64,000 nucleotides of DNA from Candidatus Doudnabacteria bacterium (GCA_023246055.1 JAHFJD010000001.1:2781-66780); one strand, 5' to 3'. Numbered from the stretch's first letter, positions 4,280-64,000 are shown. The notes: generated by a model from the letters alone, not told the origin. Numbers and translations: made by a program.

Positions 4280-4414
4280 ATGAAGCGAACATATCAACCA
4301 AAAAAGAAACATAGGAAGCGCAGTCATGGTTTTCGGCGGCGTATGAAGTCACGCGGGGGGCGGCGGGTTTTGGCATCGAGAAGGTTGAAAAAACGAAAAA
4401 GTTTGACAATTTAA
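4280..4414 (+). CDS. rpmH: 50S ribosomal protein L34
   Basis: 44 aa [44 protein letters not shown], below ORF-table size cutoff; RBS GGTGAGGG upstream; stop immediately followed by rnpA ATG. Confidence 0.85.
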
Positions 4415-4747: not shown

Positions 4748-4752
4748 CCGTC

Positions 4753-5001: not shown

Positions 5002-5006
5002 TCAAA

Positions 5007-5702
5007 ATGGAAATATTTCACCTGATCCTTATAAAACCCTTACTCAACCTCCTTATACTTGTTTATAATTTCCTGCCGGGCAGTGATATGGGGCTCGCGA
5101 TCATTGCTGTTACGATCTTCGTGCGAATTATTTTATTCCCATCATTTCAGAAATCTCTGAGAGCGCAAAAGGAACTCACGGAACTCCAGCCAAAACTCGA
5201 GGAGATCAAGGAAAAATATAAAGATGACAAGGAAGCGCAAACCAAAGCCACCCTGGAGTTCTATAAAACTAACAAAATAAACCCCTTTTCTTCTTGCCTA
5301 CCACTCTTGATTCAGTTGCCATTGTTGCTTGCTCTTTACACAGTTTTTCGGTCCGGGCTAGCAGGGCAAATTGCGGGTGAGCTCTACTCTTTCGTTGCAA
5401 ATCCAGGTGTTATTAACACGAAATTTTTAGGTTTTCTTGAGCTTTCTGCGCCGAGCCTGGTCCTTGCATTGCTCGCTGGTGTGTCGCAATTTTCGCAGTC
5501 AAAACTCATGGTCCCCAAGACCAAAACAGCGAAGGACAAAACCGCGAACATGATGAATTTGCAGTTGACTTATTTTATGCCTATCATCACAGTGATCATT
5601 GCCCGGAGGTTGCCGGCCGGTCTCTCGCTTTATTGGATTACAACCACGCTCTTTGCCATCGGCCAGCAGTGGTATATAATGAGGAGGCATGGACCCCGTT
5701 AG
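5007..5702 (+). CDS. yidC: Membrane protein insertase YidC (short form)
   Basis: 231 aa, multiple TM segments, YidC/Oxa1 family, position after yidD. Confidence 0.85.
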   Translation: MEIFHLILIKPLLNLLILVYNFLPGSDMGLAIIAVTIFVRIILFPSFQKSLRAQKELTELQPKLEEIKEKYKDDKEAQTKATLEFYKTNKINPFSSCLPLLIQLPLLLALYTVFRSGLAGQIAGELYSFVANPGVINTKFLGFLELSAPSLVLALLAGVSQFSQSKLMVPKTKTAKDKTANMMNLQLTYFMPIITVIIARRLPAGLSLYWITTTLFAIGQQWYIMRRHGPR

Positions 5703-5755
5703 AAATACTTGATGATTTCAGCGGGGCGATTGATTAACTTTTTATTTCCAATAGG

Positions 5756-6208
5756 GTGGAAGAAAAATACGGGACGATAAAACAGATCATCGCAGAGATT
5801 CTGCAACATATGGGGATCGAGGCAGAAATTGAAAACCGGTTTCTAGAAGAAACCGTGATTTTTAATCTCCGAACCCCGGATTCAGGCATGCTCATCGGCC
5901 AATATGGGGCAAACCTCGCCGCATTCCAGTATCTCGCCAGGCTCTTGGCGTTTCGGCGTTTGGGCGAGTCTGTGCGCTTTGTGGTAGATGTCGAAGATTA
6001 TAAAAAAACTCGCGAAGAATTTTTGCGAGAGTTGGCGAGGCAGGCCGCTGATCGCGTGCGAGAGACCAGACAAAGCTTACTCTTGAAGCCGATGTCAGCC
6101 TATGAACGCCGAATGGTGCACGCGGAGATCGGCAACATGCCAGATGTGATGAGCGAGTCAGCTGGCATTGATCCGGAACGAAGAGTGTTAATCAAATTGA
6201 AAATCTAG
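5756..6208 (+). CDS. jag: Jag/KhpB R3H-domain RNA-binding protein
   Basis: 150 aa, KH/R3H-like C-terminus (YERRMVHAEIG), canonical position after yidC. Confidence 0.75.
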   Translation: MEEKYGTIKQIIAEILQHMGIEAEIENRFLEETVIFNLRTPDSGMLIGQYGANLAAFQYLARLLAFRRLGESVRFVVDVEDYKKTREEFLRELARQAADRVRETRQSLLLKPMSAYERRMVHAEIGNMPDVMSESAGIDPERRVLIKLKI

Positions 6209-10514: not shown

Positions 10515-10537
10515 TTCTCTAATTATACAATAAAATT

Positions 10538-11719
10538 ATGATTATGGACATTCAAACTATTCTCACTCGGGGGGTCGCCGAGGTTATCGAAAAAAAACAT
10601 CTGGAGCAGGCTCTAAAGTCCGGTAAAAAATTGCGCGTGAAACTGGGCATTGATCCGACGAGCCCAAACATCCATATCGGCCGTGCAGTACTGCTTCTAA
10701 AGTTGCGTGCATTCCAGGAAGCTGGGCATACAGCGATATTTATCATAGGCGATTCGACAGGTATTGTTGGCGATACTTCGGACAAGGAATCGGAAAGACC
10801 AATGCTCACGGAAAAGCAAATCAAAGCAAACATGAAAACTTATCTAGCCCAGGCATACACAATTTTAGACAAGAAAAAAACAGAAGTTTATTACAATTCC
10901 AAATGGCTTAACAAATTGGGTTTCTTGGAGTTAGCCAGAATGGCAAACCTGTTCGGACTCCATGAGATGGAATCGCGGGAGATTATAGCCAGAAGGTTGA
11001 GCGCTGGACAAAGAGTATCCATTCACGAAATTCTCTACCCTCTAATGCAGGGGTATGATTCCGTAGCCGTGAAAGCGGATTTAGAATTAGGAGGCACAGA
11101 TCAGCGGTTTAATCTTTTGGCTGGCCGCAGAATCCAGCCCATGTATGATCAAACTCCGCAAGACATTCTCATGATGGAGCTTTTGGAAGGTACAGATGGT
11201 AGGAAAATGTCTTCCTCTTGGGGGAATGTGATCAATGTCACTGATGAGCCCGCCGAAATATTCGGCAGAGTGATGTCCATATCCGATGAGCTCATCATTC
11301 GTTATTTTATTCTATGCACCGAGGTGCCAGAGAGCGAGATCGCGAGCATGGCCATGGCACTGAAAAACAAATCTGTTAATCCGCGCAATCTCAAATCCAA
11401 ACTCGCCTTTGAAATTGTGAAGCTCTATCACGGAGAAAAGCCGGCCAAAACCGCGCACGAGGGATTTGAGAGCAAATTCGGTACAAGGCAAGGGGAGGTG
11501 AGCGCGGATTTTGAAATCAAGAAAACCGCCGGTAGCTATTCGATTGTCGATATTCTCGTGGAAGGCAAGCTGGCTTCCTCCAAATCTGAAGCTAGAAGAA
11601 AATTGCGCGAAGGAGCAGTAGAAATCGATGGCTCTAAAATAACAGACGAGACAGCTTCAGTGAAACTTACCAAAGGCACACTCATCCGCCTCGGGAAGAG
11701 GTTTTTGAGGATAAAATAA
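10538..11719 (+). CDS. tyrS: Tyrosyl-tRNA synthetase
   Basis: 393 aa, class I HIGH-like (PNIHIGR) and KMSSS motifs, C-terminal S4 domain. Confidence 0.85.
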   Translation: MIMDIQTILTRGVAEVIEKKHLEQALKSGKKLRVKLGIDPTSPNIHIGRAVLLLKLRAFQEAGHTAIFIIGDSTGIVGDTSDKESERPMLTEKQIKANMKTYLAQAYTILDKKKTEVYYNSKWLNKLGFLELARMANLFGLHEMESREIIARRLSAGQRVSIHEILYPLMQGYDSVAVKADLELGGTDQRFNLLAGRRIQPMYDQTPQDILMMELLEGTDGRKMSSSWGNVINVTDEPAEIFGRVMSISDELIIRYFILCTEVPESEIASMAMALKNKSVNPRNLKSKLAFEIVKLYHGEKPAKTAHEGFESKFGTRQGEVSADFEIKKTAGSYSIVDILVEGKLASSKSEARRKLREGAVEIDGSKITDETASVKLTKGTLIRLGKRFLRIK

Positions 11720-11991
11720 CAAATAGACCTGGATAACGAAGGAATCTCTACGCGCTGGTTCCAAAACCAAAGCTTTTAAGATTATTTTTATCTGGGGTGG
11801 GGCAATTGCGATAGTTATTTTAGTCGCCGCCGCGTTTTTTGGATACATTGAGGAGAATCAATCCGCTGAGCTTCTTTGGGCTGCGCTACTTTGGTTAATC
11901 TCGGGGATCTTGATTCGCCTCACTTATGGTAAACAATAGATTAGACTTATTTAAGCACTTCTAATTCCCCGCCGGTTACTGATCGGGGTTT

Positions 11992-12312
11992 TTATTTTTT
12001 CAGGGCGGATTTTAGTTTGGGCAGATTTTTTTTTACAACATTCCAGACACGCTTATAGTTTATCTTGAAGTACTCGTGAATTATCCGATTTCTTAAACCG
12101 ACTATATCGTGCCACGGAATGTCAGGATATCGATTGCGGAATTTCGCGGACAAGTGATTTGCCGCCTCGCCAATTATCTCTAATTCCCGGACCACACCGG
12201 CACGACGAAGTTTGTCTCGTCTAAAATTTTCGCAACTCATCCTCAACACAAACGTTTCAGCTTCCGCGATAGCCTCTAAGATATGTTTTTTATATAAAGT
12301 ATCTTTATCCAT
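11992..12312 (-). CDS. HepT-like toxin (DUF86, RX4HXY motif)
   Basis: 106 aa; RNRIIHEY motif; overlaps cognate nucleotidyltransferase gene. Confidence 0.7.
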   Translation of the reverse strand: MDKDTLYKKHILEAIAEAETFVLRMSCENFRRDKLRRAGVVRELEIIGEAANHLSAKFRNRYPDIPWHDIVGLRNRIIHEYFKINYKRVWNVVKKNLPKLKSALKK

Positions 12313-12781
12313 AAAGTATCTTTAAATCTTTGACCGCCTGCGGTTCGACAAGCTCATCCAGGTCCCCTTCCTCAGCCAAATCAACCTTCAAGTTTAGTGC
12401 GTCTTGGAGTATATTCTGTAGTCGGATAACATCTAAAAGGCTTTTATCGTTTTGTTTATGAAACCGAACTAGCACATCCAAATCACTATCGGGCCGCGCT
12501 TCGCCTCTGGCATAGGAGCCAAAAATACCGGCGAACTCAACGTCATTTTTTTTGAGAATCGGTACAGCTATTTTTTTGATTTGCTCCAAAGTCAAAACTG
12601 GCTTCGGATGGCTTGCAAACGGCGCCTCTGAAGCTTGATCAATGAGTTCTGGATTGGTTTTGGCAGCAAACCGCAAAAGTGCGCGAACGAATTCGCTGCG
12701 ATTGGCAAAACCATAGTTTTTTGTCGTTTGATCAACAAACTTGGCTTGTTCAGCAGTTAAGCTGATATTTACAGTCTTCAT
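12305..12781 (-). CDS. MntA-like nucleotidyltransferase antitoxin with N-terminal ribbon-helix-helix domain
   Basis: GSYARGEARPDSDLDVLV NTase motif; N-terminal NRSEFVRALL RHH-like segment; start placed at second Met (MKTVNISL) because upstream Met lies in GC hairpin repeat. Confidence 0.65.
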   Translation of the reverse strand: MKTVNISLTAEQAKFVDQTTKNYGFANRSEFVRALLRFAAKTNPELIDQASEAPFASHPKPVLTLEQIKKIAVPILKKNDVEFAGIFGSYARGEARPDSDLDVLVRFHKQNDKSLLDVIRLQNILQDALNLKVDLAEEGDLDELVEPQAVKDLKILYG

Positions 12782-12825
12782 AGATCCATTATAGCAAACT
12801 TTGGCAAGGTTTGTCAACCCCCTCT

Positions 12826-13323
12826 TCATCTCCCCCTTGATAAGGGGGAGAAAGAGTGAGGGTGATTGGCTCCGCAGATGGCCAGGGCTAGGGCGTCGGC
12901 CGCGTCATCGGGCTTGGGGATGGATTTCAGGTTCAGAAGAGTTTTAACCATGTACTGAACCTGTTTTTTGTCGGCCTTGCCGTAATTGGTTAAAGAGTTT
13001 TTAACTTGCAGGGGGGTGAATTCTGTGATGGGGATTTTATTTTGTCTCGCGCACAGCAACACCACACCGCGTGCCTGTGCGACCGCGATTGCAGTTTTTA
13101 CATTGTTATAAAAAAATACAGATTCCACCGCGACCTTGCCTGGCTTGTGTTTGCGGATTAACGAATTTAAATCCTTGTAAATTTCTTCGAGTCGTTCTGG
13201 TAGTGAATTATTTTTCGAAGTTTTCAGGCAGCCATATTCAATCGCGCGCAATTTGCCTTTTGCGGATTCAATGACTGCGTAACCAGTTGTGGCAGTGCCG
13301 GGATCAATACCGAGTATTATCAT
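12826..13323 (-). CDS. ruvC: Holliday junction resolvase RuvC
   Basis: 165 aa, MIILGIDPGTATTGYAV N-terminus, RuvC fold residues. Confidence 0.9.
   Translation of the reverse strand: MIILGIDPGTATTGYAVIESAKGKLRAIEYGCLKTSKNNSLPERLEEIYKDLNSLIRKHKPGKVAVESVFFYNNVKTAIAVAQARGVVLLCARQNKIPITEFTPLQVKNSLTNYGKADKKQVQYMVKTLLNLKSIPKPDDAADALALAICGANHPHSFSPLSRGR
12829..12851. repeat. GC-rich hairpin repeat (family 1) TCTCCCCCTTGATAAGGGGGAGA at ruvC 3' end
   Basis: Perfect 9-bp stem seen directly. Confidence 0.8.
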
Positions 13324-14039
13324 AGATTCGCGCTAGTGTGCACAGCGATTACGTCTTCATCATTTTCCAGCTCTGCGAACAAGGTATCTACTGCTGGTTT
13401 TTGTTCATCAGATAGATCCACTCCTTGGCTGCTTTCTTTTATGATTTGCGCTTCCGCAATCTTGACTCCGAGACTCTGGAGTTTTTGTTTGATAGGGTTG
13501 AGATCCAAAGGACGGGTGTAGACCTCGAGTCCTTCTTTTGATTCACGGACATCTTCGGCACCAGCATCGATCGCGGCCAGTTCCAGATCTGATAGATCAA
13601 CCCCAGATCTTTCCACGAGTATTTGTCCCCTTGTAGCAAACTGCCAGGCAACGCTCCCCTGTTCCGCGAGATTGCCCCCATGCTTTGCGAAGATATGTTT
13701 GATGTTGTTTACTGTACGATTCTTGTTGTCTGTCGCGGTCTCTATGAGAAACGCGGTGCCGAAAGGCCCGTAACCTTCATAGACTACCTCTTCAAGGGTG
13801 TTTCCGTCTTGTGCCCCTGCGGCCCGCGAGATAGCTCGTTCAATATTGTCACCGGGCATGCTCAGCGTTCGGGCATTCTCAATGACCATGCGCAGTTTGA
13901 AATTGGTAGCCGGGTCCACGCCTCCGTTTTTTGCGGCAATGGTTATTGCGCGGGCGAGTTTGGAGAAGGCCTGCCCTTTCTTTTTGTCAGCCGCGCCTTT
14001 TTGTCTCTTGATTTGTGCCCATTTGCTATGCCCGCTCAT
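13320..14039 (-). CDS. YebC/PmpR family DNA-binding transcriptional regulator
   Basis: 239 aa, MSGHSKWAQIKRQKG N-terminus diagnostic of YebC family. Confidence 0.9.
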   Translation of the reverse strand: MSGHSKWAQIKRQKGAADKKKGQAFSKLARAITIAAKNGGVDPATNFKLRMVIENARTLSMPGDNIERAISRAAGAQDGNTLEEVVYEGYGPFGTAFLIETATDNKNRTVNNIKHIFAKHGGNLAEQGSVAWQFATRGQILVERSGVDLSDLELAAIDAGAEDVRESKEGLEVYTRPLDLNPIKQKLQSLGVKIAEAQIIKESSQGVDLSDEQKPAVDTLFAELENDEDVIAVHTSANL

Positions 14040-15385
14040 ATTGTGATCGTTTCTCCATATTTCGGAATCGTGGCTTCAAGCTTGTGCTCTTTTAATTTTG
14101 CCCCAAATTCCAGCATGCTTTCCGCATCGCCGTGTACGAGACAAATTTGCCCGATTTCTTTGGCCGTGCTGATCCACGAAAGCAATTTTTTCTGATCCGC
14201 ATGAGCAGAAAACCCCCCGATGGCTATGACCCGGGCTTTCACTGGCACACTTTTGTTGAGCAGCTCCACCCATTTTTGTCCGTCCAAAATTTTTCGTCCA
14301 GGGGTGTGTGCTGCTTGGTAGCCAATGATTAGCAGGGTGTTTCTGGGGTCAGGCAGGTAGCGCTCGAGATGGTACATGATGCGGCCCCCGTTCATCATGC
14401 CGCTGCCGGCGATGATAATTTTGGGGCTGGGAATTTTATTGATCACTCTGGATTTTTGGCGGGTGGGGGTGAGGCGCAGCCCGGGGAAATCAAACAAATC
14501 ATGATCCTTTTTCTGTTGCAGCCAATCGTCGTTATTGAAAAACTCCGGGTATTTTCTGAAAATTTCTGTGACCTTGATAGCAAGCGGTGAATCCAAAAAG
14601 ATCGGCATCGCCGGAATCATCCCGGCTTTAATCATATTGTGCAGTTCGTACAAGATTTCCTGGGTTCGCTCAACGGCAAACGCGGGGATGAGCAGTGTCC
14701 CGCGTTGTTTGATGGTTTGCACTACGGTGTCTTCGAACAGCTGGCTGCGCTGCTGTGGGGTCTCATGCAGGCGGTTGCCATAAGTGGTTTCGCAGACCAG
14801 GAGATCAATAGCTTCGCGGAGCGGTTCAGTTTCGCGGATAATCGGCGGATGTTCATTGCCAATATCCCCCGAAAATATGAGCTTTTTCCCGTCGATGACA
14901 AGTTCTATGAACGCAGCCCCCAGGATGTGGCCGGAATTGTGAAAGATAGCGTAGTCTGTTTCTGAAAGCGGGATTTTTTGTCCATATTCTACACCTTGGA
15001 AAAATTTTTCTACTCGTTTTGTGGCCGCGGCACTATACAAAGGTAGGCGGCCGGTCTCCTGATACTCGATCTCCATAATTTCTATGGCATCTTCCCATAG
15101 GGCATTCATGAGCTCCAGGGTCGGGCTCGTGGCAAAGATTTTTCCGGTAAACCCTTCGGCGCATATTTTTGGCAGGCGGCCGGTATGATCCAGATGCGCG
15201 TGAGTTATCAAGACATTGTCAATCGCGCCACAGCCAAAAGGCAGCGCTTCATAATTTCTCGCCCGAGCGAACCGCTCACCTTGAAACAGACCGCAGTCTA
15301 CGAGTACGGTTGTGCGTTCGCCGCGTACTAGGTAGCAAGATCCGGTCACCTCAGTGGTAGCTCCATAAAAAGTGATTGAAGGCAT
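14036..15385 (-). CDS. MBL-fold beta-CASP family RNA-metabolising hydrolase
   Basis: 449 aa; HAHLDHTG metallo-beta-lactamase motif, beta-CASP-like C-terminal region. Confidence 0.7.
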   Translation of the reverse strand: MPSITFYGATTEVTGSCYLVRGERTTVLVDCGLFQGERFARARNYEALPFGCGAIDNVLITHAHLDHTGRLPKICAEGFTGKIFATSPTLELMNALWEDAIEIMEIEYQETGRLPLYSAAATKRVEKFFQGVEYGQKIPLSETDYAIFHNSGHILGAAFIELVIDGKKLIFSGDIGNEHPPIIRETEPLREAIDLLVCETTYGNRLHETPQQRSQLFEDTVVQTIKQRGTLLIPAFAVERTQEILYELHNMIKAGMIPAMPIFLDSPLAIKVTEIFRKYPEFFNNDDWLQQKKDHDLFDFPGLRLTPTRQKSRVINKIPSPKIIIAGSGMMNGGRIMYHLERYLPDPRNTLLIIGYQAAHTPGRKILDGQKWVELLNKSVPVKARVIAIGGFSAHADQKKLLSWISTAKEIGQICLVHGDAESMLEFGAKLKEHKLEATIPKYGETITI

Positions 15386-15417
15386 TGTAATTGAAGCATA
15401 GCATAATTTTAGAAACC

Positions 15418-15447
15418 AAAAACCGCTGGTTAAGCGGTTTTTGGTTC
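15418..15447. terminator. Rho-independent terminator hairpin (AAAACCGCTGGTTAAGCGGTTTTTGGTT)
   Basis: GC stem + T-run downstream of minus-strand gene ending 15575. Confidence 0.5.
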
Positions 15448-15574
15448 GGAATCATCGGAAGCAGGGCTCTGACTTCCTTCTGGATGTTTACTAATATCAT
15501 GACCGTCCATATTCTCAACATCATCGACGTCAGCGCTGCACATTGGGCAAGTTGGCATTGTGTTGCACCCCCTT

Positions 15575-16546
15575 TCAAGGTTTTACTGTAAACGTGGTTG
15601 TTTGATAAAGAATTGAACCATTTTTTGCAAAACCAAAAACTCGCACTTCGTATTGCCCGGTAGCCACCGGAGCACTGAACGTGAATCGGAAAGGCGAGCG
15701 TTCATCCGTAAGCCGTAGAGGTTCAGAAATCAAAATGGCTTGGGCGAGTTCAGTCGGTGCGCTCAGCTCTACGGTGATTTCGCTTCCGGGAACCACAGCT
15801 GTTTGTGAGAGGTCGGTGATGTTTAACTCCGGTGAAGGGGAATTGACAATCAGTCCCTTCACCAGTTGGTTGGCTGTTTTTATCTCCGCGGCCTTGATGA
15901 GATTCTGGGGATTCACATTTTGGAGGCCACGTTTGAGAATACCAAAATCGGTCTCGAGGGAAAAGGTCAGAGAGTAATCAAGCGCTGGATCGCCTAGCGC
16001 CATATAGAGATAATTGTCTTTGGTTTGCGGATCAATGGGGATGCTCAAGAGATTTTTTCCATTCAAGAGTTCATCAAGTGTTTGGGGATACACATGATTG
16101 GCCGTGAAAAATGCGGAAAGCGCAGCTTGTATGGTTTCGATATCCTCAAGCCTCCGCTGGTCGTGGATAGTAGCGTCCTGTTCGAGTTCGGCAGAGGAGA
16201 TAGTTGCGGAGTTGACCGTCCCGTTTTCTCCAGATCCAGAGAACCATGAATAGCTCCAGTATGCTGTGATACCGACTATCGGTATAGCCATTATTACGAT
16301 GAGAGATGGAATCACCATTTGGCGCATGCGGCCGAGAAACCCTGGTTTACTTTGTGCTTGCGGGGCGAGTTCTTTTTCGAGAATATCCATGCTCTGCGGT
16401 TTTGGTCGAATCGTCGCAACACTAAAAGCTTCTTCAACATCCATAGCTCCCCAACCCGCGCCGAGCAAAATCTGCCGGATCTCTAGTTCCGAAAATCCGT
16501 CTTTGAGATTTTGTTTGATATAGGAGAGAAGACTTGGTTCTATCAT
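15575..16546 (-). CDS. Hypothetical membrane-anchored protein
   Basis: 323 aa ORF with one TM segment, no recognisable domain. Confidence 0.45.
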   Translation of the reverse strand: MIEPSLLSYIKQNLKDGFSELEIRQILLGAGWGAMDVEEAFSVATIRPKPQSMDILEKELAPQAQSKPGFLGRMRQMVIPSLIVIMAIPIVGITAYWSYSWFSGSGENGTVNSATISSAELEQDATIHDQRRLEDIETIQAALSAFFTANHVYPQTLDELLNGKNLLSIPIDPQTKDNYLYMALGDPALDYSLTFSLETDFGILKRGLQNVNPQNLIKAAEIKTANQLVKGLIVNSPSPELNITDLSQTAVVPGSEITVELSAPTELAQAILISEPLRLTDERSPFRFTFSAPVATGQYEVRVFGFAKNGSILYQTTTFTVKP

Positions 16547-16556
16547 GGTTGTTATA

Positions 16557-16630
16557 TGGGCGTGCCTGGATTCGAACCAGGGACCCTCTGTGTATAAGAC
16601 AGATGCTCTAACCAGCTGAGCTACACGCCC
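16557..16630 (-). tRNA. tRNA-Ile (anticodon UAU)
   Basis: 74-nt cloverleaf by hand: acceptor GGGCGTG/CACGCCC, D-arm GCTCAGCTGGTTAGAGC, anticodon loop CTTATAC, T-loop TTCGAAT. Confidence 0.7.
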
Positions 16631-16655
16631 ATACCAGTATTATATCTGTTTCATC

Positions 16656-16928
16656 TTATGAAATCGAGATGCGTAGTTCAGCATCGAGAGCTTCAGCTAT
16701 CCGATGAAGAAACTTAATTGAAGGGTTGTAGCCCCCTCTTTCCAGCCGGGAGATAACAGGTTGTTTTGTGCCAAGCTTAGCCGCTAGCTGTTTTTGGGTC
16801 AGACCCTCCTTGAGGCGTTTTTTTATGATCATTCTGATCAAATCAAATTCCGGCCCCAGTTCATCGTAGGCTTTTTTGAATTCTTTATTTTTTAGTAACT
16901 GCACTCTAAAAGCTTTGTAAGTTCTCAT
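16656..16928 (-). CDS. XRE-family HTH antitoxin (HigA-like)
   Basis: 90 aa; HTH LTQKQLAAKLGTKQPVISRLERG; paired with upstream gp49/HigB-like toxin. Confidence 0.7.
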   Translation of the reverse strand: MRTYKAFRVQLLKNKEFKKAYDELGPEFDLIRMIIKKRLKEGLTQKQLAAKLGTKQPVISRLERGGYNPSIKFLHRIAEALDAELRISIS

Positions 16929-16954
16929 AAAGATAATATAACTTATAAGTTATA

Positions 16955-17260
16955 TTATGTCAAGTGTTTCATCCTGGAAAATGCGATATCAAGCTCCTTT
17001 CGAGGAGTTTGTTGAGATTGCTTTATAAATCCGTGTAATAAATAAACTGCATTGTTGTGAAAGCAATAGAAAATTCTAATCTCTTGTTTCCCCCTGACGC
17101 GCAGTTCAAAGACGCCTTTATTTATGTGTCTACTATGAGGCATGCTGAGCTGATAGCCAAATTCTTCGATCAAGCTAATAGTTCTATCTACTTTGGCGGC
17201 AGCTGGCATTCCGAGAGAACGGATAAATTTTTCTACACTTGCATCGATAAACAGCTGCAT
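16955..17260 (-). CDS. HigB-like toxin (phage Gp49/DUF891 family)
   Basis: 101 aa; ...GKQEIRIFYCFHNNAVYLLHGFIKQSQQTP typical of RelE/HigB-superfamily Gp49-like proteins. Confidence 0.7.
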   Translation of the reverse strand: MQLFIDASVEKFIRSLGMPAAAKVDRTISLIEEFGYQLSMPHSRHINKGVFELRVRGKQEIRIFYCFHNNAVYLLHGFIKQSQQTPRKELDIAFSRMKHLT

Positions 17261-17261
17261 A

Positions 17262-18014
17262 TTATTTTCCAGAAGGCAGCAAATCCCAGATAAGCTTAAA
17301 CCAGGTCCGGTAGGTTTCTGCGAGCTGCGGATGAATCATTACAAAGATTTTTCCGTCTTCGCCAAAATTGCCAATGTCTGTGCTGACAAAGGTTACGACA
17401 TAATCTCCAAACACATCCGTGTGTCCTTTGGCGGAATATTTTTTTGGTAGGATTTTATATTCCCCGCGAACCTTTTTAAAAGCCTGTGGCAGTTTTTCTT
17501 TTACGCGCCAATCATATAGTGTGTAGTATTTTTTCTTTTTGTGATGCATGGCGGATTGAAAGTCCTCTAGGTATTGTTTTTCAATCCCCGGAGAGAACCA
17601 CAACCCTTTGGCCCCCAAAAAATAGGTATCCTCTGCCACCCGGGCCATGTCGCGCATATAGTTTTTGAATCCCTCCAAGCCTTTGTAAATATAAGCGGCT
17701 TCTTCGAGTGGTTTGGCGTCATAGAGTTTTCTCATTTCAGGAAGCACGTTTGCGAGAGCATGTTCTTTTTCTGCCAAGACTTCGGCCAGCTTGTCAGGAG
17801 TGACGGCCCGGAACTGGTTCTCGCCTTTTTGAAAAATCCGAAACACCAGGCCTTTTTCTGTTAAGCGGTTCAGTGCGTCATAAACATTCCGCCGATGCAC
17901 GGCTGCTTTGAGGGAGATTTCCGACACACCAATCTCCCCTGCCGCAAGCAAGGTTTCGTAGATTTTGGCTTCATTCGGAGAAAGCCCTATATTTTCTAAT
18001 ATTTCCGCGTACAT
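17262..18014 (-). CDS. TrmB-family transcriptional regulator
   Basis: N-terminal HTH MYAEILENIGLSPNEAKIYETLLAAGEIGVSEIS; start placed at MYAEIL because the upstream 28 codons lie in a MITE-like repeat. Confidence 0.7.
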   Translation of the reverse strand: MYAEILENIGLSPNEAKIYETLLAAGEIGVSEISLKAAVHRRNVYDALNRLTEKGLVFRIFQKGENQFRAVTPDKLAEVLAEKEHALANVLPEMRKLYDAKPLEEAAYIYKGLEGFKNYMRDMARVAEDTYFLGAKGLWFSPGIEKQYLEDFQSAMHHKKKKYYTLYDWRVKEKLPQAFKKVRGEYKILPKKYSAKGHTDVFGDYVVTFVSTDIGNFGEDGKIFVMIHPQLAETYRTWFKLIWDLLPSGK

Positions 18015-18025
18015 ATGGTCATTTC

Positions 18026-18093
18026 TGTCATTCCCGCGGAGGCGGGAATCTATATAAACTAATCCTGGATTCCGGGTCAAGCCCGGAATGACA
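18026..18093. repeat. MITE-like element (family 2) with 9-bp terminal inverted repeats TGTCATTCC/GGAATGACA and internal hairpins
   Basis: TGTCATTCCCGCGGAGGCGGGAATC...CTGGATTCCGGGTCAAGCCCGGAATGACA; homologous copy at 48561-48620 and partial copy at 32304-32355. Confidence 0.55.
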
Positions 18094-18229
18094 ACCATTG
18101 TTAATGGTGCTCTTTATCACCCTATGGTGCTCTTGGCCACTCAATATCTTTATTGTATGCTCTCCTGTCACCATTGTCAACCCCGAACTGATTCGGTCCC
18201 AAAGCAGTGGTGCATTAAGGAGGAACAGG

Positions 18230-18769
18230 ATGGAGATAGAAGAAGGTAAAACAGCTTTGATTCAAACGGTCAAGTCGTTAGACAGAGACGACTCACTCAT
18301 CAGAAAAATTCAAGAAGAGGAGATTCCAGCAACTCCTTTGCCTAAAAATTTGCGGGCTTTGGTCGAGGTGATTGTGATGCATCTTACAAGGCTGGGGACT
18401 TTGTGCGGCTCTGTCCCCTCTTGCAATGGCTGGTCACTGGCTGTCCGTGAGGCTCCGGAGACAAGGGATCACTATTCTCAACAATGCTTTTTTGCAGTAA
18501 AAGGCCAATCGCGAGTTAGGCTTAGTAGAAGTTATTTGACGGATTTAGTTAAACCTTCGGAAGTGCTTGGGGTAGTACAGGCTTTGTCCACGTTGCCAGC
18601 AATTCTGACGGCTTGGCAGAGAGACGTAGAAAAGAAAAAGAAAGACGCGGCGGAGAAATTAAAAAAGACCGAAGGTGAGCTTGTGGAGGCAGAAAAGCAA
18701 TTAACCGATCTTTGTCGGGAATTGGTTAAAGTATCTACAGAAATTCTGAATCAAAAAAAGGAGAACTGA
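18230..18769 (+). CDS. Hypothetical protein with C-terminal coiled coil (first gene of 3-gene cassette)
   Basis: Start at ATG 18230 preceded by AGGAGG; 179 aa; KKKDAAEKLKKTEGELVEAEKQL coiled coil; no known domain. Confidence 0.5.
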   Translation: MEIEEGKTALIQTVKSLDRDDSLIRKIQEEEIPATPLPKNLRALVEVIVMHLTRLGTLCGSVPSCNGWSLAVREAPETRDHYSQQCFFAVKGQSRVRLSRSYLTDLVKPSEVLGVVQALSTLPAILTAWQRDVEKKKKDAAEKLKKTEGELVEAEKQLTDLCRELVKVSTEILNQKKEN

Positions 18770-54588: not shown

Positions 54589-56598
54589 ATGGCAAACTTG
54601 GCCATAAAACTCAAAAATCTTCCTCAAGCCCCCGGGGTGTATCTGTTCAAAAACAACCGCGGCGAGGTTTTGTACGTTGGTAAAGCTAAAAATCTGAAAA
54701 ATCGCGTCAGGTCATACTTTCAGAATGGCAGAGATTTCGAAGCGCGACTCACGGTCATGAAGCAAAACATTGCGGATCTTGATTACACAGTGGTGTCCTC
54801 GGAAATCGAGAGCCTGATGCTCGAAAATAATCTCATCAAGCAATATCAGCCACGATTCAATGTGCTCATGCGAGATGATAAAAATTATCAGTTTATCAAG
54901 CTCGATTATTCTTTTGAAATCCCACAGATTTACACAGTGCGTCAGGTTCCCCTCCTCGTGAGGAGGGGTCAGGGGAGGTTAACCCCCTCCCCGCCCGCCT
55001 CGCAAGCGAGAGCGTTGCGGGCAGGTTCCTCTCCCCCTCACCTGCCCGACTTCGTTTGGGCGAAGTCCAGGCGGGCGGGCGAGGGGGAGAAACTTTCAAG
55101 GTATTTCGGGCCTTATACCTCCAGCCTGGCAGTCAAACAAACTTTGCACCTGTTGAAAAGCATTTTCCATCTCTGCCGCAACAAAAAGATCATTACCAAA
55201 CCCTGTTTCGCCTATCAACTCGGCCGTTGCAGTGGGGTGTGTGTTGGCAAGGTCTCATTACCTGAGTATCTTGAGACTTTTAAGCAAGTCGAAGGTTTTC
55301 TCAAGCATCGGCAAACCGAGATGATGAAAATTCTGCGCGGGGAAATGACCACTGCCGCCACGCGCCACAAATTTGAGAGGGCAGCCATGATCCGGGATAC
55401 GATTCGGTCACTAGAATATATGTGGCAAAAGCAAAAAATCGTGACAGCGAGAAATGAAAACCACGATTATCTCGGGTTGTTCAAACTGGCAACACAAGCG
55501 GTGGTGTGTTTGTTTGTGGTGCGGGGAGGGAGACTCATCCATACTGAACATTTTGAACTGGTGCATGACAATTCTTCATCACCGGAGATTATGGAGCGAT
55601 TTATCACCCAGTATTATGAACAAACCAGCGATATTCCTCAGGAGCTTATCCTCTCTGAAGAATTACCCCGCGTCCCACTCCTGGAAAAATTTCTCACTCG
55701 GCTCACAGGTCAGCGGATTACATTGATTGTTCCGCACCGCGGCAAAAAATCTGGATTGTTAAAACTTGCTGCGGAAAATGCCAGACTCTATCACGAGCGG
55801 CAAATGCCGGATTTTCAAAAAGAAAAACCCAAGCAAACACTCCATGCTTTATCGAGGTTTCTTGAACTTCCAAAAATCCCGATGCGCATTGAAGGTTATG
55901 ACATTTCCAACATCCAAGGAATCAATCCAGTCGGATCGATGGTAGTGTTTACTGCTGGCGTGCCGGACAAAAGCCAATATAGAAAATTTAAAATCAGACT
56001 CCCAGAAACCCCCAATGATTTTGCTATGATGCGCGAGATGCTGGAGCGGAGATTTCGTCACCTCCCCCTCATGAGGGGGAGGATGGGTGGGGGTCGCGGA
56101 GCAAATACACCCACAACCTTCCCTCCCCCTCCTCACGAGGAGGGGGACAATACCTCTTGGCTTCTCCCCGACCTCATCATTATCGACGGCGGCAAAGGGC
56201 AGCTAAATGCTGCTGTTTCCATACTGAAACACAATGATCTGAAAATTCCTGTGATAGCGCTTGCGAAACGACTCGAAGAAATTTTTTTGCCGGGGCGAAA
56301 GAATCCCCTGGTGCTTCCCCCAGGCAACCGGGCGTTATTTCTCCTTCAGCGTATTCGGGATGAGGCTCATCGTTTTGCTGTGACATTTTTCCGGAGCCGT
56401 CACCGGCGCGCTCAAATTTATTCTCGCCTCGAGGATATTTTTGGGGTTGGACCAGTAACTCGAAAAAAATTGATCAAAAAATTCGGCAGCGCTATAGCGG
56501 TCAGACGCGCTTCTCTTGACGCTCTTACGGCAGAGATCGGTCCGCGACTTGCAAAAAATATCAAGGAGCAACTGCCCCCATATCAAGCGAAGCCCTGA
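54589..56598 (+). CDS. uvrC: Excinuclease ABC subunit C carrying two in-frame GC-rich repeat insertions
   Basis: 669 aa; GIY-YIG N-terminus (GVYLFKNNRGEVLYVGKAKNLKNR), UvrC Endo-V/RNaseH-like and HhH C-terminus; insertions at 54940-55095 and 56060-56160 encode P/G/E-rich segments. Confidence 0.9.
   Translation: MANLAIKLKNLPQAPGVYLFKNNRGEVLYVGKAKNLKNRVRSYFQNGRDFEARLTVMKQNIADLDYTVVSSEIESLMLENNLIKQYQPRFNVLMRDDKNYQFIKLDYSFEIPQIYTVRQVPLLVRRGQGRLTPSPPASQARALRAGSSPPHLPDFVWAKSRRAGEGEKLSRYFGPYTSSLAVKQTLHLLKSIFHLCRNKKIITKPCFAYQLGRCSGVCVGKVSLPEYLETFKQVEGFLKHRQTEMMKILRGEMTTAATRHKFERAAMIRDTIRSLEYMWQKQKIVTARNENHDYLGLFKLATQAVVCLFVVRGGRLIHTEHFELVHDNSSSPEIMERFITQYYEQTSDIPQELILSEELPRVPLLEKFLTRLTGQRITLIVPHRGKKSGLLKLAAENARLYHERQMPDFQKEKPKQTLHALSRFLELPKIPMRIEGYDISNIQGINPVGSMVVFTAGVPDKSQYRKFKIRLPETPNDFAMMREMLERRFRHLPLMRGRMGGGRGANTPTTFPPPPHEEGDNTSWLLPDLIIIDGGKGQLNAAVSILKHNDLKIPVIALAKRLEEIFLPGRKNPLVLPPGNRALFLLQRIRDEAHRFAVTFFRSRHRRAQIYSRLEDIFGVGPVTRKKLIKKFGSAIAVRRASLDALTAEIGPRLAKNIKEQLPPYQAKP
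54940..55095. repeat. Long GC-rich composite hairpin insertion (family 1 + CCCGCCCGCC/GGCGGGCGGG arms) inside uvrC
   Basis: ttcccctcctcgtgaggaggggtcaggggagg...ccccgcccgcctcgcaagcgagagcgttgcgggcagg...caggcgggcgggcgagggggagaaac. Confidence 0.7.
56061..56148. repeat. Two adjacent GC-rich hairpin repeats (family 1) inside uvrC: CCTCCCCCTCATGAGGGGGAGG and TCCCCCTCCTCACGAGGAGGGGGA
   Basis: Seen directly; encode HLPLMRGRMGGGRGANTPTTFPPPPHEEGD. Confidence 0.8.
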
Positions 56599-58715: not shown

Positions 58716-58833
58716 AAGGGCGCGTGGCGGAACTGGCCCGCCCAAATTTGCAAAGCAAATTTCAGTCGGGCAGGCAGATTTGCCCCGCATAGCTGGTGCC
58801 TGTATGGCGGAACTGGTATACGCGTACGTTCAC
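58716..58833 (+). other. Two tandem degenerate copies of the tRNA-Leu(CAG) 5' portion (pseudo-tRNA remnants)
   Basis: 58716-58800: GGGCGCGTGGCGGAACTGGCCCGCC... with Leu-like D-arm and variable arm but no T-arm; 58800-58833: 28 nt identical to tRNA positions 5-32 (GTATGGCGGAACTGGTATACGCGTACG). Confidence 0.55.
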
Positions 58834-60389
58834 CCCGCACTAACTCTTTGCAAGTTTAACAAATTACTTATTCTTGATGGGCGTATGGCGGAACTGGTAT
58901 ACGCGTACGCTTCAGGAGCGTATGGCCGCAAGGCCGTGAGAGTTCGAGTCTCTCTACGCCCACCACCCAAGTAATTTCTCCGATCGGCGATCAAGTCGTA
59001 AGGTTCTTTTAGCTTAAGGATCACATTTTCCGCGCTCACCAACCGGTTCGAGGTCAACGTTTCCACCAAACAATGCTTTTCTTCTTCATTTGCCATTTCG
59101 TAGCTTGAATATGCGGTTTTTGCGAGTTCGAGAACATTGAGGACGTGATCGGGAACGGCAGCCATTTTCTCTGGGGCTCCCAGCTGCTGCTCTAGATCTT
59201 TCTTCTCCAACAGCAGAAGCCGATTCCGATTGTCAAACGCTTCTTTATCGAGGACTTGATCCAGGTAGGCGTCGGTCAGGCGAGCCAACCGCTGTTCAAT
59301 GTTCGAAATCCGCAATCGCAAACCCTTCTGTGCCGATTCCGTATTCTGCTTCCAGTCCGCTTTCAGTTTTTCAATGGCTTGCCGAGCCCGGACTTCTTCC
59401 AGCGGCTCCAGTTCCAGCTTGAACAATTCCGCCCTAACAGCGTAGTCCACGGCCTCCTCTCGTACGCAACGGGTCGGACATGCCGAAGTATGGCAACGGT
59501 AATAAACATGGCCTTTCTGCCGCTCGCCGATCATGGTTGCCTGACAGAGGCTGCACGCCAGTAGCCGCCGGAAAGCAAACCAATGCCGGAAATTCCTCGG
59601 GTGATAACGTCCATCGAGTATGGCTTGCACACGATCGAAGGTAGGCTTCGGTACCAGCGGTACGTGAGCGCCGGGAAAGGATTCTCCAGTGCTGTGAATG
59701 AGAATCACACCGACATAGAAGGGATCCCGTAACATCAAGGCCCACCGGGCCCGCTGCACGGAGCGGTTCCTGGTGTTTCTCAAGCCTCGCTTCGTCATTT
59801 CCTCCGTCAGTTGATCAAGGTTGTATCTTCCGGATGCGTACAGATCGAAACCCAGACGAACGAGTGGCCCTTTGACCGGGTCGATGGCCTTGGGTTGACC
59901 GGCTCCTTGATCAAGGTAACCCAACGGGGCAGGGCGCGGATAGATACCTTGCTTGAGCCGGCCATAGAATCCTTTGCGCGTCTCTTCGCGTAGGTTTCGG
60001 ATATAGTCGGCGGCCACGACAGCTTGAATGTCAGCGGTCAGCCGCCCGCCGCGCGTGTTCAGATCCAGGCTTTCATTGGCAAACCAAACATCAGTCCCCT
60101 GATCGATGAGTTCTCCGAGATCCGCCCAGTCCCGAAGGTTCCTGGCGCTGCGGTCGATCTTGTGAATGACCACACCGGTCGCCTTGCCGGCTTTCAATGC
60201 TTTCAGCATTTGATTGAAAATCGGTCGTCCGCGTTTGGCAGCGGTTTCTCTTTCTTCAAACCATTCTCCAACATCGAACCCGCGGGTTCGGCAGAATCGC
60301 TCGATGGCGCCTCGCTGTTCTTGCAAAGAGACGCCTTTTTCGCCTTGTTTGGGCGTAGAAACACGGATGTAACCAAACACTTGTTTCAT
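58830..60389 (-). CDS. Large serine recombinase (resolvase/invertase N-terminal domain + recombinase + zinc-ribbon domains)
   Basis: 519 aa; YIRVSTPKQGEKGVSLQEQ catalytic Ser motif; C-terminal ~47 codons read antisense through tRNA-Leu so true stop may be earlier; high local GC. Confidence 0.85.
   Translation of the reverse strand: MKQVFGYIRVSTPKQGEKGVSLQEQRGAIERFCRTRGFDVGEWFEERETAAKRGRPIFNQMLKALKAGKATGVVIHKIDRSARNLRDWADLGELIDQGTDVWFANESLDLNTRGGRLTADIQAVVAADYIRNLREETRKGFYGRLKQGIYPRPAPLGYLDQGAGQPKAIDPVKGPLVRLGFDLYASGRYNLDQLTEEMTKRGLRNTRNRSVQRARWALMLRDPFYVGVILIHSTGESFPGAHVPLVPKPTFDRVQAILDGRYHPRNFRHWFAFRRLLACSLCQATMIGERQKGHVYYRCHTSACPTRCVREEAVDYAVRAELFKLELEPLEEVRARQAIEKLKADWKQNTESAQKGLRLRISNIEQRLARLTDAYLDQVLDKEAFDNRNRLLLLEKKDLEQQLGAPEKMAAVPDHVLNVLELAKTAYSSYEMANEEEKHCLVETLTSNRLVSAENVILKLKEPYDLIADRRNYLGGGRRETRTLTALRPYAPEAYAYTSSAIRPSRISNLLNLQRVSAG
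58879..58962 (+). tRNA. tRNA-Leu (anticodon CAG), CCA encoded
   Basis: GGGCGTATGGCGGAACTGGTATACGCGTACGCTTCAGGAGCGTATGGCCGCAAGGCCGTGAGAGTTCGAGTCTCTCTACGCCCA(CCA). Confidence 0.85.
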
Positions 60390-60470
60390 GGTTGTTGGTG
60401 GACTTGAGACTTACTTAGTTAAAAGATTACTGGCTAGAGTGGTGATAAAACGTGGAGAAACTCTCGCCCT

Positions 60471-62720
60471 TTATCGTCGGATGTATCCCCCAATCGCTCG
60501 GTCGTCCAACCCAGCAAGGTGGGCATCCTTCTTCCGATTTAGAAAAGCGAAGACATGCCAATAAAGCAGTCCACGCGCCGCTTCGCTGGCGCCGGCGTGC
60601 TCCTGAAGCAACTCGTTTAGCATTCCCCAAACTTGTCCATATTGCTCGTTTCGCAATAGTACTTCTGCCAAGCGAATGGTGATCTCGACACGAAGATCCT
60701 TGTCACTGCATGTATCGGCCCATTTTCGCCATTCAGCAAAGTCCGGCTTGGTGTCCATGCGTTCTCGCCACCTGGCACGGACTACATCGTACGCGCAACA
60801 CTGTTGGAGATTGGAAGGATCCGGCCGTTCAAGTGGAAACTCGTTAGCGCTTTCGCCCAACGTTTTAAGCTGCAGCAAGATTTCCAATGACTTTACGAGG
60901 TAGTCCTGGCCTGGCTTAAATCGTAGGTATGGGTTCGCCAGAATCCACTCCAGAACGCTTTCAACGTGAGTGTTCGTGTGCCTGAATGACGACCGGAAAA
61001 AAGGCCAAATATCACCGCTGATCAGCGCAAAAGTGACTTCCGACAGGTCGTTTCCAATTCGGGAACCAGACACCAAACCATCCTGGATCGCACTTAGCAA
61101 GTCTGATTTAGTCTTATCTTTTATATCTCGCCGTACGCGGTCAACCAATCCTTGATTGATGCGCTGGACGAATGTAATCGGCTGGACGAGACTAGCGAAA
61201 AGATTCTCCGCAGTAGGATCGATTTGTGAGGCATCAACATGAATTACGCTCGCAAAACCGAACGTATCAAGATCGTCGATCAGCCGAGTGATGTCACTCT
61301 CCAGATGTTCGTTCAGGTTTTGAAATGCACTCTCAGCGGCCCTCACAAAGAGCGTCTTCGTAAATCCTAAAGGCGCATTCGAATCCAGAAGGACCAAAAG
61401 GTCGAGGAGCGCTCTTGCGCGTTTCGATAGCGACTCCAGAAAGTAGTCGCAATGGTTGTCAGATAGCCTCAGAAATTTTGATTGAGTCATCCTGACGGCG
61501 GTCCCAGGATTGCCACTTGACATCGCGGCGATGGTAGCTACGTCCACGTCACGCGGAAGGTCCATCCGATTCAAGATGGCTGCGATGTCTGAGCGCCTGA
61601 GAGGTTGAAGCTTGAGGCTCGGCAGTTCTGCCACATCCAAGGGGTAAATGGATTCGAAAATCCATACAGTACGATCCCGAGCCGGAGCGGTCTTCCCTTG
61701 TGAGGTGACCTCGCGCACAAATTCCCTGATACTGTTGGCTGCAGCAATTGGATAGGATTCGACCCATATAACAATATCCTTCGAATCCAGTTCCTCAATT
61801 AGCTTTGTACGGCCTAGACCGCTGGGATCAGCATCTGTCACCGCCCGAAAGGTGTGTTGTAGGAACTTATCCACGGAGCGAGCATCTCCCGGACTAACTG
61901 GAAAGCAGTCGCGTTCTCGATTGCGTATATAGTGCTTGATTAGCTCGCTTTTCCCCAGTCCAGGCACAGAGACAACGTCGACGAAACGAACAGTTTTAAG
62001 CGATTCTTTCAACCGTTCGTAATCACTTGATCGTAATTTGTCTAAGTACCAGGGTTTTGAAATCAGATTGTGAACACCATCTAGGTTCTGTCTTAGGAAG
62101 GTTGAAAGACTTTCTAGGTCTGGAAAGGAGGCTAGGCGTTGTTTGATGATAGACTTTAATTGGTCTGCAGCGGAGAGGTGACCGTCAATTTGCGCGCTAC
62201 GAAGCTGCTTCTTCAAAACATCGAGCAAGTTGTATTCATGGGTATAATTCGCTTTCGGTTCGCCTGCGATTCCGACATTGTCATGCGAGAGGTCATGGAG
62301 ATCCGACTTGATCTTCTGAATGTCTGAAAGATCAAGGCCAGGGCAATAGAACAGAATTTCTGGGTCGCGACGGCTTAGAAACCTTATACCCTGATTAACG
62401 AGTGCTCCCTTAAGGAATCCCTGTAAACGCTCCAACTTTTCCAAGAAGGAGTGGAGCTGGCGAGAAACTTCATCGCCAGGTAGATTCTTGACTTCACAGA
62501 CCGCTAGTCGATCTCGAAACGCCAGAACCAAGTCAGCTTGTCTCGCTTTTTGCCAGGGGAATGCCACTTCGAAGAACGCTGACAATTCACCTCGGCTATC
62601 GGTATCCAAAGTGTCCGCCCACCTCTCAATGTCTCGAATTGTGTTTAACGTAGTGGGCTTACTCACCCATTGTTTAAGAGCTCTTATCCACTTTGGATCG
62701 TCTGGAACAAAGCATCGCAT
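60471..62720 (-). CDS. NERD/PD-(D/E)xK nuclease-like domain fused to P-loop NTPase and C-terminal alpha-helical domain (candidate defence/abortive-infection protein)
   Basis: 749 aa; N-terminal ...ADLVLAFRDRLAVCEVKNLPG (D...EVK NERD-like); Walker A VSVPGLGKSELIKHY near aa 300; long helical C-terminus; ~55 % GC vs ~42 % flanks. Confidence 0.55.
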   Translation of the reverse strand: MRCFVPDDPKWIRALKQWVSKPTTLNTIRDIERWADTLDTDSRGELSAFFEVAFPWQKARQADLVLAFRDRLAVCEVKNLPGDEVSRQLHSFLEKLERLQGFLKGALVNQGIRFLSRRDPEILFYCPGLDLSDIQKIKSDLHDLSHDNVGIAGEPKANYTHEYNLLDVLKKQLRSAQIDGHLSAADQLKSIIKQRLASFPDLESLSTFLRQNLDGVHNLISKPWYLDKLRSSDYERLKESLKTVRFVDVVSVPGLGKSELIKHYIRNRERDCFPVSPGDARSVDKFLQHTFRAVTDADPSGLGRTKLIEELDSKDIVIWVESYPIAAANSIREFVREVTSQGKTAPARDRTVWIFESIYPLDVAELPSLKLQPLRRSDIAAILNRMDLPRDVDVATIAAMSSGNPGTAVRMTQSKFLRLSDNHCDYFLESLSKRARALLDLLVLLDSNAPLGFTKTLFVRAAESAFQNLNEHLESDITRLIDDLDTFGFASVIHVDASQIDPTAENLFASLVQPITFVQRINQGLVDRVRRDIKDKTKSDLLSAIQDGLVSGSRIGNDLSEVTFALISGDIWPFFRSSFRHTNTHVESVLEWILANPYLRFKPGQDYLVKSLEILLQLKTLGESANEFPLERPDPSNLQQCCAYDVVRARWRERMDTKPDFAEWRKWADTCSDKDLRVEITIRLAEVLLRNEQYGQVWGMLNELLQEHAGASEAARGLLYWHVFAFLNRKKDAHLAGLDDRAIGGYIRR

Positions 62721-62845
62721 ACGCGTTTACTTGGATTGGATTGGGCAGAGCATACGAAAAGCAGGCTGCAAAAGCAACCTGCCGAAATCTCCCCGAGCTA
62801 GTAGCTGAAGGAAATCCACACCATCCTCCTGTAAATATAACTTGG

Positions 62846-62880
62846 GCTGCTATGTCCGATAGGACTCGGACATAGCAGCT
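62846..62880. repeat. Strong perfect hairpin GCTGCTATGTCCGA-TAGGA-CTCGGACATAGCAGC downstream of island-internal gene start
   Basis: 14-bp perfect stem seen directly. Confidence 0.8.
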
Positions 62881-63600
62881 TGCAGCCACGCACGTCTTAC
62901 AAGTCGTGCTTGGGTCTGTGGCCGACGCCAATGTTGTGCACAATGACTTGCGCGCTCCCATTTCCTAGACAACCGTGATAAACCATGCTCCACATCTACT
63001 AGCGCTACCGCGTGCCGCTAGGACACACTAGTAAACGTGTGCTAGCGTGAGCATCCCTATCATCGGCGGAAACAAGCATTGACGACCCTGAGGCCCCCTT
63101 ACTCCATGGCTAGTGTAGTGGCCATTTTGAGCGCCAATAACCCAACGAAGACGCGGTCAGCCACGCGTTGGGTCAAAGAATAAAGCGTTCGCAACACCAC
63201 CAATTACCACTTTCGTGGGGTGCTCAATGATTCATTGAAGTAGGAAGGAACTATCGAAATCCTTGGCTGGACACCGCAGATTACAAGGCAGTATATACCA
63301 TTCAAGTTATTGTTTCAATAGGACTTACAGTTCAGAAACTCCTTTTAATACCGTCTGCTTATGGAAGTATAAAATTTCTGTAAAAAGGAAAGTGGGCGTT
63401 ACGATGAGGGTTTCGTCTTGACGCGTTGCGAGGGAACCCGTATAGATACTTTCATGATCTTGGTTATGCGGATATTTCTTAAAACCTAACCTGTCGTAAT
63501 CACGCCCGCCTCAGGCGGCGTTCACGCATTGAATGCGGACACGGTGGCCACGCAACAAGAACCAGAAGAGCCAACCGACAATCGAAAGGAGAAACAATCG

Positions 63601-64000
63601 GTGGCTCGACAAAGTAAACGCTCTTATGGGAGCGGATGTGTGATTCAACGGGGGAAGGGTTTTGCAATCCGCTGGCGCGAGATTCAAATCCTACCGGATG
63701 GAACGAAGCGGTTCGTCAATCGCTGTGAAGCTGTGGGCCGCGTATCCAAGAGGAAAGCGGTTGATATTCTCAACGAGCGGCTGGCTACGGCAGCGACGAC
63801 GGTCCAACGTCCGGTTATCACGTTTTCGGAACTCGCCACGGTTTGGAAAGCAACTGTACTCCCCATGTACAAATACTCCTCGCGGCTTGTTCGCGGGGAT
63901 ACCGTAACCAAGAAGCTCATTCCACGTTTCGGAGACTGGGAGTTGACTGACGTGACGAAGCAAGAAATCCAAAGCTACATCGCGGAACTTCACCGTGCCG
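63601..64000 (+). CDS. Tyrosine-type site-specific integrase, N-terminal part (runs off right edge)
   Basis: GTG start after AAGGAG; VARQSKRSYGSGCVIQRGKGFAIRWREIQILPDGTKRFVNRCEAVGRVSKRKAVDILNERL...SELATVWKATVLPMYKYSSRLVRGDTVTKKLIPRFGDWELTDVTKQEIQSYIAELHRA resembles phage-integrase N-terminal arm-binding/SAM-like regions; no stop before window end. Confidence 0.55.
   Translation, partial: MARQSKRSYGSGCVIQRGKGFAIRWREIQILPDGTKRFVNRCEAVGRVSKRKAVDILNERLATAATTVQRPVITFSELATVWKATVLPMYKYSSRLVRGDTVTKKLIPRFGDWELTDVTKQEIQSYIAELHRA

Follow-up and report, generated by a model that had tools for sequence, protein, structure and literature searches.

In Avs1 to Avs4 (Avs3, PDB 8dgc; Avs4, PDB 8dgf), a single polypeptide of 1500-2000 amino acids (aa) joins a nuclease of restriction-endonuclease fold, either Mrr- or Cap4-like, to a STAND (signal transduction ATPase with numerous domains) NTPase and a C-terminal helical sensor made of variable tetratricopeptide repeats (TPRs), and the genes are solitary within defence islands. 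Avs1 to Avs5 become active when they bind a phage protein (terminase, portal or JADA) directly and oligomerise. Avs5 (AVAST type 5) has a SIR2 NADase effector, an NTPase of the nSTAND3 class (10.1101/2025.07.08.663546) and TPRs. Outside this group, NERD nuclease domains occur in Mokosh type I and Nhi-like systems (PMC10952713) and in the NERD endonuclease ZwsA, which cuts RNA and requires equivalent E/D/E/K residues for defence (10.64898/2026.04.06.716636). Here we describe a gene at positions 60,471 to 62,720 of a 64-kb stretch of DNA from a Candidatus Doudnabacteria bacterium, analysed as a whole and referred to as the window. The gene probably belongs, as a divergent member whose C-terminus has been cut short, to a rare and unnamed family of STAND NTPases that each consist of one protein and resemble Avs proteins and the nucleotide-binding leucine-rich repeat receptors (NLRs).

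In full-length members of the family (~1050-1100 aa), an N-terminal NERD-type PD-(D/E)xK nuclease would be the effector, a STAND module of nucleotide-binding, helical and winged-helix domains, closest to the Pfam class nSTAND3, would be the switch, and the presumed sensor is a C-terminal region that is helical and in part repeat-like. The family shares with Avs1-4 the order of parts in one polypeptide and the solitary-gene context, and differs from them in its NERD-like effector, its full length of ~1050 aa and a C-terminus that is strongly conserved and carries invariant motifs. With Avs5 it shares the three-part layout and the closest NTPase class, the effector being a nuclease rather than a SIR2 domain. 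The 749-aa open reading frame (ORF) of the window lies exactly where the original prediction had placed it, and its features are listed in Table 1.

An exhaustive HMMER search of 1.84 billion representative proteins returned 70 homologues at E<=1e-3, including 16 at <=1e-30. The best of them reached 8.4e-48, yet with 28% identity, the maximum for any relative, and all relatives come from metagenomes or metagenome-assembled genomes (MAGs). Most homologues are 1040-1110 aa long, and the ten best matches are singleton metagenome clusters, unnamed or annotated as 'hypothetical protein'. A peptide-pattern scan located at least two MAG loci (Acidobacteriaceae and Candidatus Eiseniibacteriota) among 185,579 species genomes and at least four further metagenome loci, counts that are lower bounds because one peptide pattern alone was usable; that pattern gave no family match in IMG/VR, GenBank phages or PLSDB plasmids. 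Patterns taken from the single window protein matched nothing in genome, viral or metagenome contigs, the large alignment offered no segment of sufficient conservation for a pattern, and a word-indexed search of 5.8 billion clusters returned nothing with either the window protein or a 50-sequence alignment. Scanned by itself, the window protein had no significant Pfam match (AAA_22 alone, at E 0.016), no match in NCBIfam or PHROGs, and none among PDB sequences searched with phmmer. A PADLOC scan, which the original prediction had called for, gave zero matches with the window protein and, in 41 relatives, matches confined to the P-loop region (mad8, MkoA, TRIP13, DpdH); the AVAST models of PADLOC-DB v2 have no sequence-level match to the family. 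No paper linking NERD with Avs or STAND fusions was found in the literature searched. The family is rare and unnamed, and lies outside every catalogued Avs family.

The N-terminus carries the D-x-V...E-V-K signature that had been noticed in the sequence (ADLVLAFRDRLAVCEVKN, starting at residue 62). E51, D63, E76 and K78 do not vary in any of the 26 N-terminal domains that were aligned, and G44, F68, C75 and Q95 are at least 90% conserved in them. When each N-terminus was scanned alone, 17 of 26 matched Pfam NERD (PF08378) at E<1, the best at 2.3e-5, and every other Pfam family was matched by at most one. Since NERD recurs and no other family does, we consider the family NERD-related. An AlphaFold model built with the 70-sequence alignment reached a mean predicted local distance difference test (pLDDT) score of 90.2 and a predicted template modelling score of 0.81, the single-sequence model being unusable (pLDDT 37). 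In this model (pLDDT ~90 here), a helix precedes strands 46-53, 59-66 and 71-76, which hold the conserved nuclease residues on three consecutive strands and are followed by helix 88-108 and strand 120-125; the modelled order of elements is the usual PD-(D/E)xK arrangement (α-β-β-β-α-β core).

The family core, QxD-x12-ExK, is spaced identically in the founding NERD protein, pXO1-01 of Bacillus anthracis. In the best local hhalign alignment, with the pXO1 NERD protein, these residues were superimposed at the same spacing at a probability of 1.7% from a single sequence, which makes the alignment a lead rather than proof; a profile of the N-terminal domain retrieved from PDB sequences spurious Protein A repeats only. 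The upstream Glu of the family completes an E/D/ExK tetrad comparable to the one needed for defence by ZwsA. ZwsA cuts RNA, whereas the nucleic-acid substrate of the family is only inferred, and pXO1-01, ZwsA and the NERD modules of Mokosh type I and Nhi-like systems differ from the family in not being fused to a STAND NTPase. The effector is exchanged in two relatives that retain the STAND and C-terminal parts: an Mrr_cat nuclease (P0039, 3.8e-10) or an adenylate/guanylate cyclase domain (P0043, 1.3e-8) replaces NERD. At one locus (L012, 9300-12454), a 221-aa NERD ORF, assigned by hhalign at a probability of 99.9%, overlaps the start of an 830-aa STAND ORF by 4 nucleotides (nt); the gene is either naturally split in two at this locus or frameshifted.

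STAND NTPases are defined by a Walker A motif GxxGxGK[ST], an arginine motif (hhGRExE-like) that precedes the P-loop by about 20 residues, an acidic Walker B motif, a helical domain with GxP followed by a winged helix, and a C-terminal repeat or sensor superstructure. The definition used here is reportedly that of Leipe, Koonin and Aravind in 2004. At the level of sequence, the conserved LRxxEL, Walker A, GxP and PLG motifs of the family fit it. GLGKSE begins at residue 254, ~176 residues beyond the nuclease motif where ~170 had been estimated, and G256 and K257 of the Walker A motif are at least 90% conserved in 41 full-length members. The consensus LRxxEL contains R230 (at least 90% conserved) 21 residues before G251, and a GNPxxA motif (G403, P405, A408) precedes the winged helix with its PLG. 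The hydrophobic strand proposed in the original prediction, DIVIWVES, was found at residue 315. Its hhhWI portion (316-320) is conserved, the following residues vary (WIRDYD, WIPEYT, WVRKYD; WVESYP in the window copy), and E356-S357, on the strand after it, are nearly invariant. In one sequence, motifs as short as these might appear by chance. Because the columns of the nuclease and P-loop motifs are invariant or at least 90% conserved across distant homologues, these motifs do not occur by chance. Pfam matches in the 41 full-length relatives were to AAA_22 (27), nSTAND3 (PF20720; 23, with scores at or below the gathering cut-off) and AAA_16 (20), with NB-ARC or NPHP3_N found occasionally.

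We compared the modelled structure with the PDB using Foldseek. Avs3 (8dgc) ranked first at 7.7e-7, in keeping with the STAND/Avs-type likeness that had been predicted, followed by the STAND-TPR protein 6mfv, MalT, CED-4, Avs4 (8dgf), SAMD9 and Apaf-1; plant NLRs also matched the central module, and the BFVD library of viral structures yielded generic AAA+ matches only. The longest and best matches were NLR, Avs and CED-4 modules, with the winged-helix domain included. Identity to the eukaryotic NLR and apoptosome ATPases (WRR4A, ZAR1, CED-4, Apaf-1) is ~10-13%, and their effector and sensor domains differ from those of the family. The rank of MalT raises the question of a non-defence STAND signalling protein, such as a MalT- or AfsR-type regulator. 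This is highly improbable: the searches detected no output domain of a DNA-binding kind, the N-terminal output appears from its residues to be a nuclease with an intact catalytic tetrad, and the genes around relatives are rich in defence and mobile-element functions rather than arranged as metabolic operons.

The genes of relatives stand alone, surrounded by genes of defence, conflict or mobile elements. Their neighbourhoods include, in turn, Replic_Relax, SIR2_2 and XRE-type helix-turn-helix genes; a DEAD-box helicase, SUKH, LHH and a methyltransferase; PNP_UDP_1-iSTAND, Mrr_cat and NACHT; a reverse transcriptase, two integrases, Replic_Relax and tRNA-Arg; DO-GTPase, GAP1 and HSP70-VWA; a TrwB-like coupling protein; an integrase, DUF4365, a TGT-like protein and UvrD; and an SMC/AAA_21 ATPase with a caspase. 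In the Acidobacteriaceae MAG (L004, CAVZDT010000014.1), the family member (9965-13132) belongs to a three-gene islet between tRNA-Val upstream and, directly downstream, an array of 30 tRNA genes for most amino acids (13840-18400), and the region as a whole is flanked by housekeeping genes. The window gene has no adjacent partner, as the original prediction stated, and the comparison with other genomes that it proposed revealed no partner gene conserved across the neighbourhoods of relatives. Genes of ~470 aa downstream of two relatives were considered as a conserved partner and rejected, being mutually unrelated.

The neighbourhoods also bear on a role in mobile-element maintenance, in which the protein would be an ORC/Cdc6-like initiator, or a TnsC/MuB-like transposition ATPase combined with a TnsA-like nuclease. 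The ten neighbourhoods have no conserved transposase or replication gene in common, and one relative sits between housekeeping and tRNA genes. Such a role is also opposed by the NLR/Avs/CED-4 structural matches, by the STAND motifs together with the nSTAND3, AAA_16 and NB-ARC matches, by the C-terminal helical-repeat region of relatives and by the replacement of the N-terminal domain with Mrr or cyclase, and we regard it as very unlikely. A non-nuclease N-terminus with an ordinary helicase or recombination ATPase in the middle, which the original prediction had named as the outcome contradicting it, was not what these searches returned.

Residues ~375-749 are nearly all helical in the confident AlphaFold model, which bears out the predicted ~400 residues of α-helix, and F574, S577, F579, R580, W592 and N728 are at least 90% conserved in the C-terminal region. 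The window protein ends ~20 residues past the conserved FLNRKK, and relatives that reach this point run on for at least 146 aa, usually 300-430 aa. It is without 17 columns that are at least 80% conserved, among them the LLTxGSxHRH block kept in 40 of 40 full-length relatives. Also absent are the last ~200 profile positions of relatives, which match designed helical-repeat proteins at E ~1e-4. Family homology reaches the stop codon and then breaks off abruptly, and none of the three reading frames of the next 81 nt continues it. Across 56 conserved positions the window copy matches 43 (family range 39-56, median 51), the 13 substitutions including Q95K, Q99L, G251S and W412T; the nuclease tetrad and the Walker A lysine are retained. 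As homologues are longer, conserved motifs are lost and 43 of 56 positions are kept, we conclude that the window gene is a truncated and divergent copy. The layout of nuclease, NTPase and sensor-like C-terminus proposed in the original prediction stands, and the loss of the last ~310 aa had gone unnoticed.

A complete and functional short variant, acting as a normal sensor-nuclease with a C-terminus that is dispensable or supplied otherwise, would be compatible with the uninterrupted ORF, with the retained tetrad, Walker A lysine, GxP and GDxxPFFRSSFR motifs, and with the variable C-terminal length of the family, P0031 having 188 aa beyond the aligned part. We nevertheless consider it unlikely, given the longer continuation of every relative reaching the query end, the universal retention of LLTxGSxHRH in full-length relatives, the abrupt end of homology at the stop and a count of conserved positions below the family median. 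With its C-terminal third missing, the window copy would most likely be impaired or deregulated and not act as a normal sensor.

On the same strand, 81 nt downstream, lies the start of a gene for a large serine recombinase. This arrangement could suggest that an intervening element, in the manner of the sigK skin or of Anabaena xisF, has divided the gene and left its 5' part here, with excision restoring full length. This was rejected as extremely unlikely: neither tblastn with the C-termini of 40 relatives nor a profile hidden Markov model revealed any remnant of the missing part in the 64-kb window, and the recombinase gene abuts tRNA-Leu, beyond which housekeeping genes follow.

The truncated gene is carried by an island that probably integrated at tRNA-Leu. 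The recombinase-bounded island of the original prediction was recovered, with the serine recombinase on one side and the N-terminus of a tyrosine integrase at the window end; on its right, the island extends beyond the window. The similarity of the recombinase to phage serine integrases ends at ~aa 468, near position 58985, and its last ~50 codons run antisense through tRNA-Leu(CAG), which places the left junction at the 3' end of the tRNA and makes this tRNA the likely integration target at the left border. The foreign composition that had been claimed is supported by tetranucleotide usage, 59-64 kb being the most deviant part of the window (z = 3.3-3.4), and not by GC or GC3, which in the gene equal those of neighbouring housekeeping genes.

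Several further observations concern the window. The 5' part of tRNA-Leu occurs three times at ~80-nt spacing (58718, 58798 and 58879; region 58718-58909), including an exact 27-nt copy (58802-58828 = 58883-58909), and the middle copy ends just where the recombinase ORF has its stop codon; these repeats may be scars of earlier integration or excision there. The ~840 nt upstream of the gene (62721-63560) contain no ORF longer than 60 aa and no Rfam match. Within them, ~130-160 nt before the start codon, an inverted repeat of two perfectly matching 14-nt arms, 6 nt apart (62846-62879, GCTGCTATGTCCGA/TCGGACATAGCAGC), could be an operator. Elsewhere, the uvrC ORF (54589-56598) holds at 56054-56151 a G/C-rich imperfect hairpin of CCTCCCCCTCATGAGGGGGAGG-like palindromes, in frame, that gave spurious microRNA-like Rfam matches; the 669-aa UvrC product has Pro/Gly/Arg-rich stretches resembling insertions. 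Positions 1-6000 are also compositionally deviant (GC ~0.40 vs 0.45-0.52 elsewhere; tetranucleotide z 1.7-2.5).

Table 1. Positions of the gene, its domains and motifs, and the adjoining features of the island in the window.
Feature	Position	Strand	Details
Whole coding sequence	60471..62720	minus	ATG start, 749 aa + stop; stop codon 60471-60473; ORF list
N-terminal NERD-like PD-(D/E)xK nuclease domain	62253..62720	minus	~residues 1-156
Predicted catalytic core	62487..62570	minus	E51 62568-62570, D63 62532-62534, E76-V-K78 62487-62495
Helical linker	62046..62252	minus	residues 157-225; AlphaFold secondary structure, weak conservation in alignment
STAND-type nucleotide-binding domain	61602..62045	minus	residues 226-373
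Motifs of nucleotide-binding domain			LRSSDYER 229-236; Walker A SVPGLGKS 251-258 (61947-61970)
Strands of nucleotide-binding domain			IVIWVES 316-322 (Walker-B position); VWIFES 352-357
Helical domain and winged-helix domain	61116..61601	minus	residues 374-535; GNPGTA 403-408 (GxP motif), PLG 450-452
Helical C-terminal region	60474..61115	minus	residues 536-749; GDIWPFFRSSFR 569-580, FLNRKK 726-731
Spacer, 81 nt	60390..60470	minus	between the gene's stop codon and the recombinase start; family homology stops here
Large serine recombinase gene, left end of island	58830..60389	minus	Pfam Resolvase 1.8e-28, Recombinase, Zn_ribbon_recom
tRNA-Leu(CAG)	58879..58965	plus	ARAGORN; Rfam tRNA 54.9 bits
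Tyrosine-integrase gene, 5' part, runs off window end	63562..64000	plus	Phage_int_SAM_3, 1.8e-7, above curated cut-off

By analogy with Avs1-4, the C-terminal region of a full-length member would bind an invader-derived ligand, after which the NTP-bound STAND modules would oligomerise and bring the nuclease domains together, so that nucleic acid would be cut and the infection stopped or the cell killed. That a ligand is sensed, that the proteins oligomerise, that their substrate is nucleic acid and that they confer any defence are inferred from this analogy. Several points weigh against the picture. Known defence models matched the window protein and its 41 relatives nowhere beyond the P-loop in PADLOC. 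The C-terminal region is well conserved, whereas many Avs sensors diversify, and for this reason it may not sense a phage protein. The acidic residue of Walker B is not conserved in the family. In the window copy, the first Walker A glycine, present in 93% of relatives, is a serine, and the N-terminus scores 13.4 bits against NERD (E 0.11, residues 45-86; gathering cut-off 22.1), so that this copy alone does not qualify as Pfam NERD. The truncated copy may even have no function. A more speculative proposal, to which we give little credence, is that the family forms a new, uncatalogued Avs-like immune receptor class, with a NERD nuclease as effector, whose conserved C-terminus (GDLEPFFRSSFR, LLTxGSxHRH) senses a conserved cue, the sensor-less window copy being either a deregulated nuclease or a dominant-negative decoy of the element against host receptors of the same family.

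We read the window copy as a member of an Avs-like family that is truncated, divergent and perhaps defective: the Avs-like architecture had been rightly recognised in the gene, but this copy is truncated. The family amounts to ~70 sequence clusters among the 1.84 billion representatives, and is absent from PADLOC and from nearly all reference genomes. NLR-like STAND receptors with nuclease effectors are central to bacterial innate immunity and link it to the NLRs of plants and animals. To these receptors the family would add a branch with a NERD effector and a conserved sensor that does not look like TPRs.
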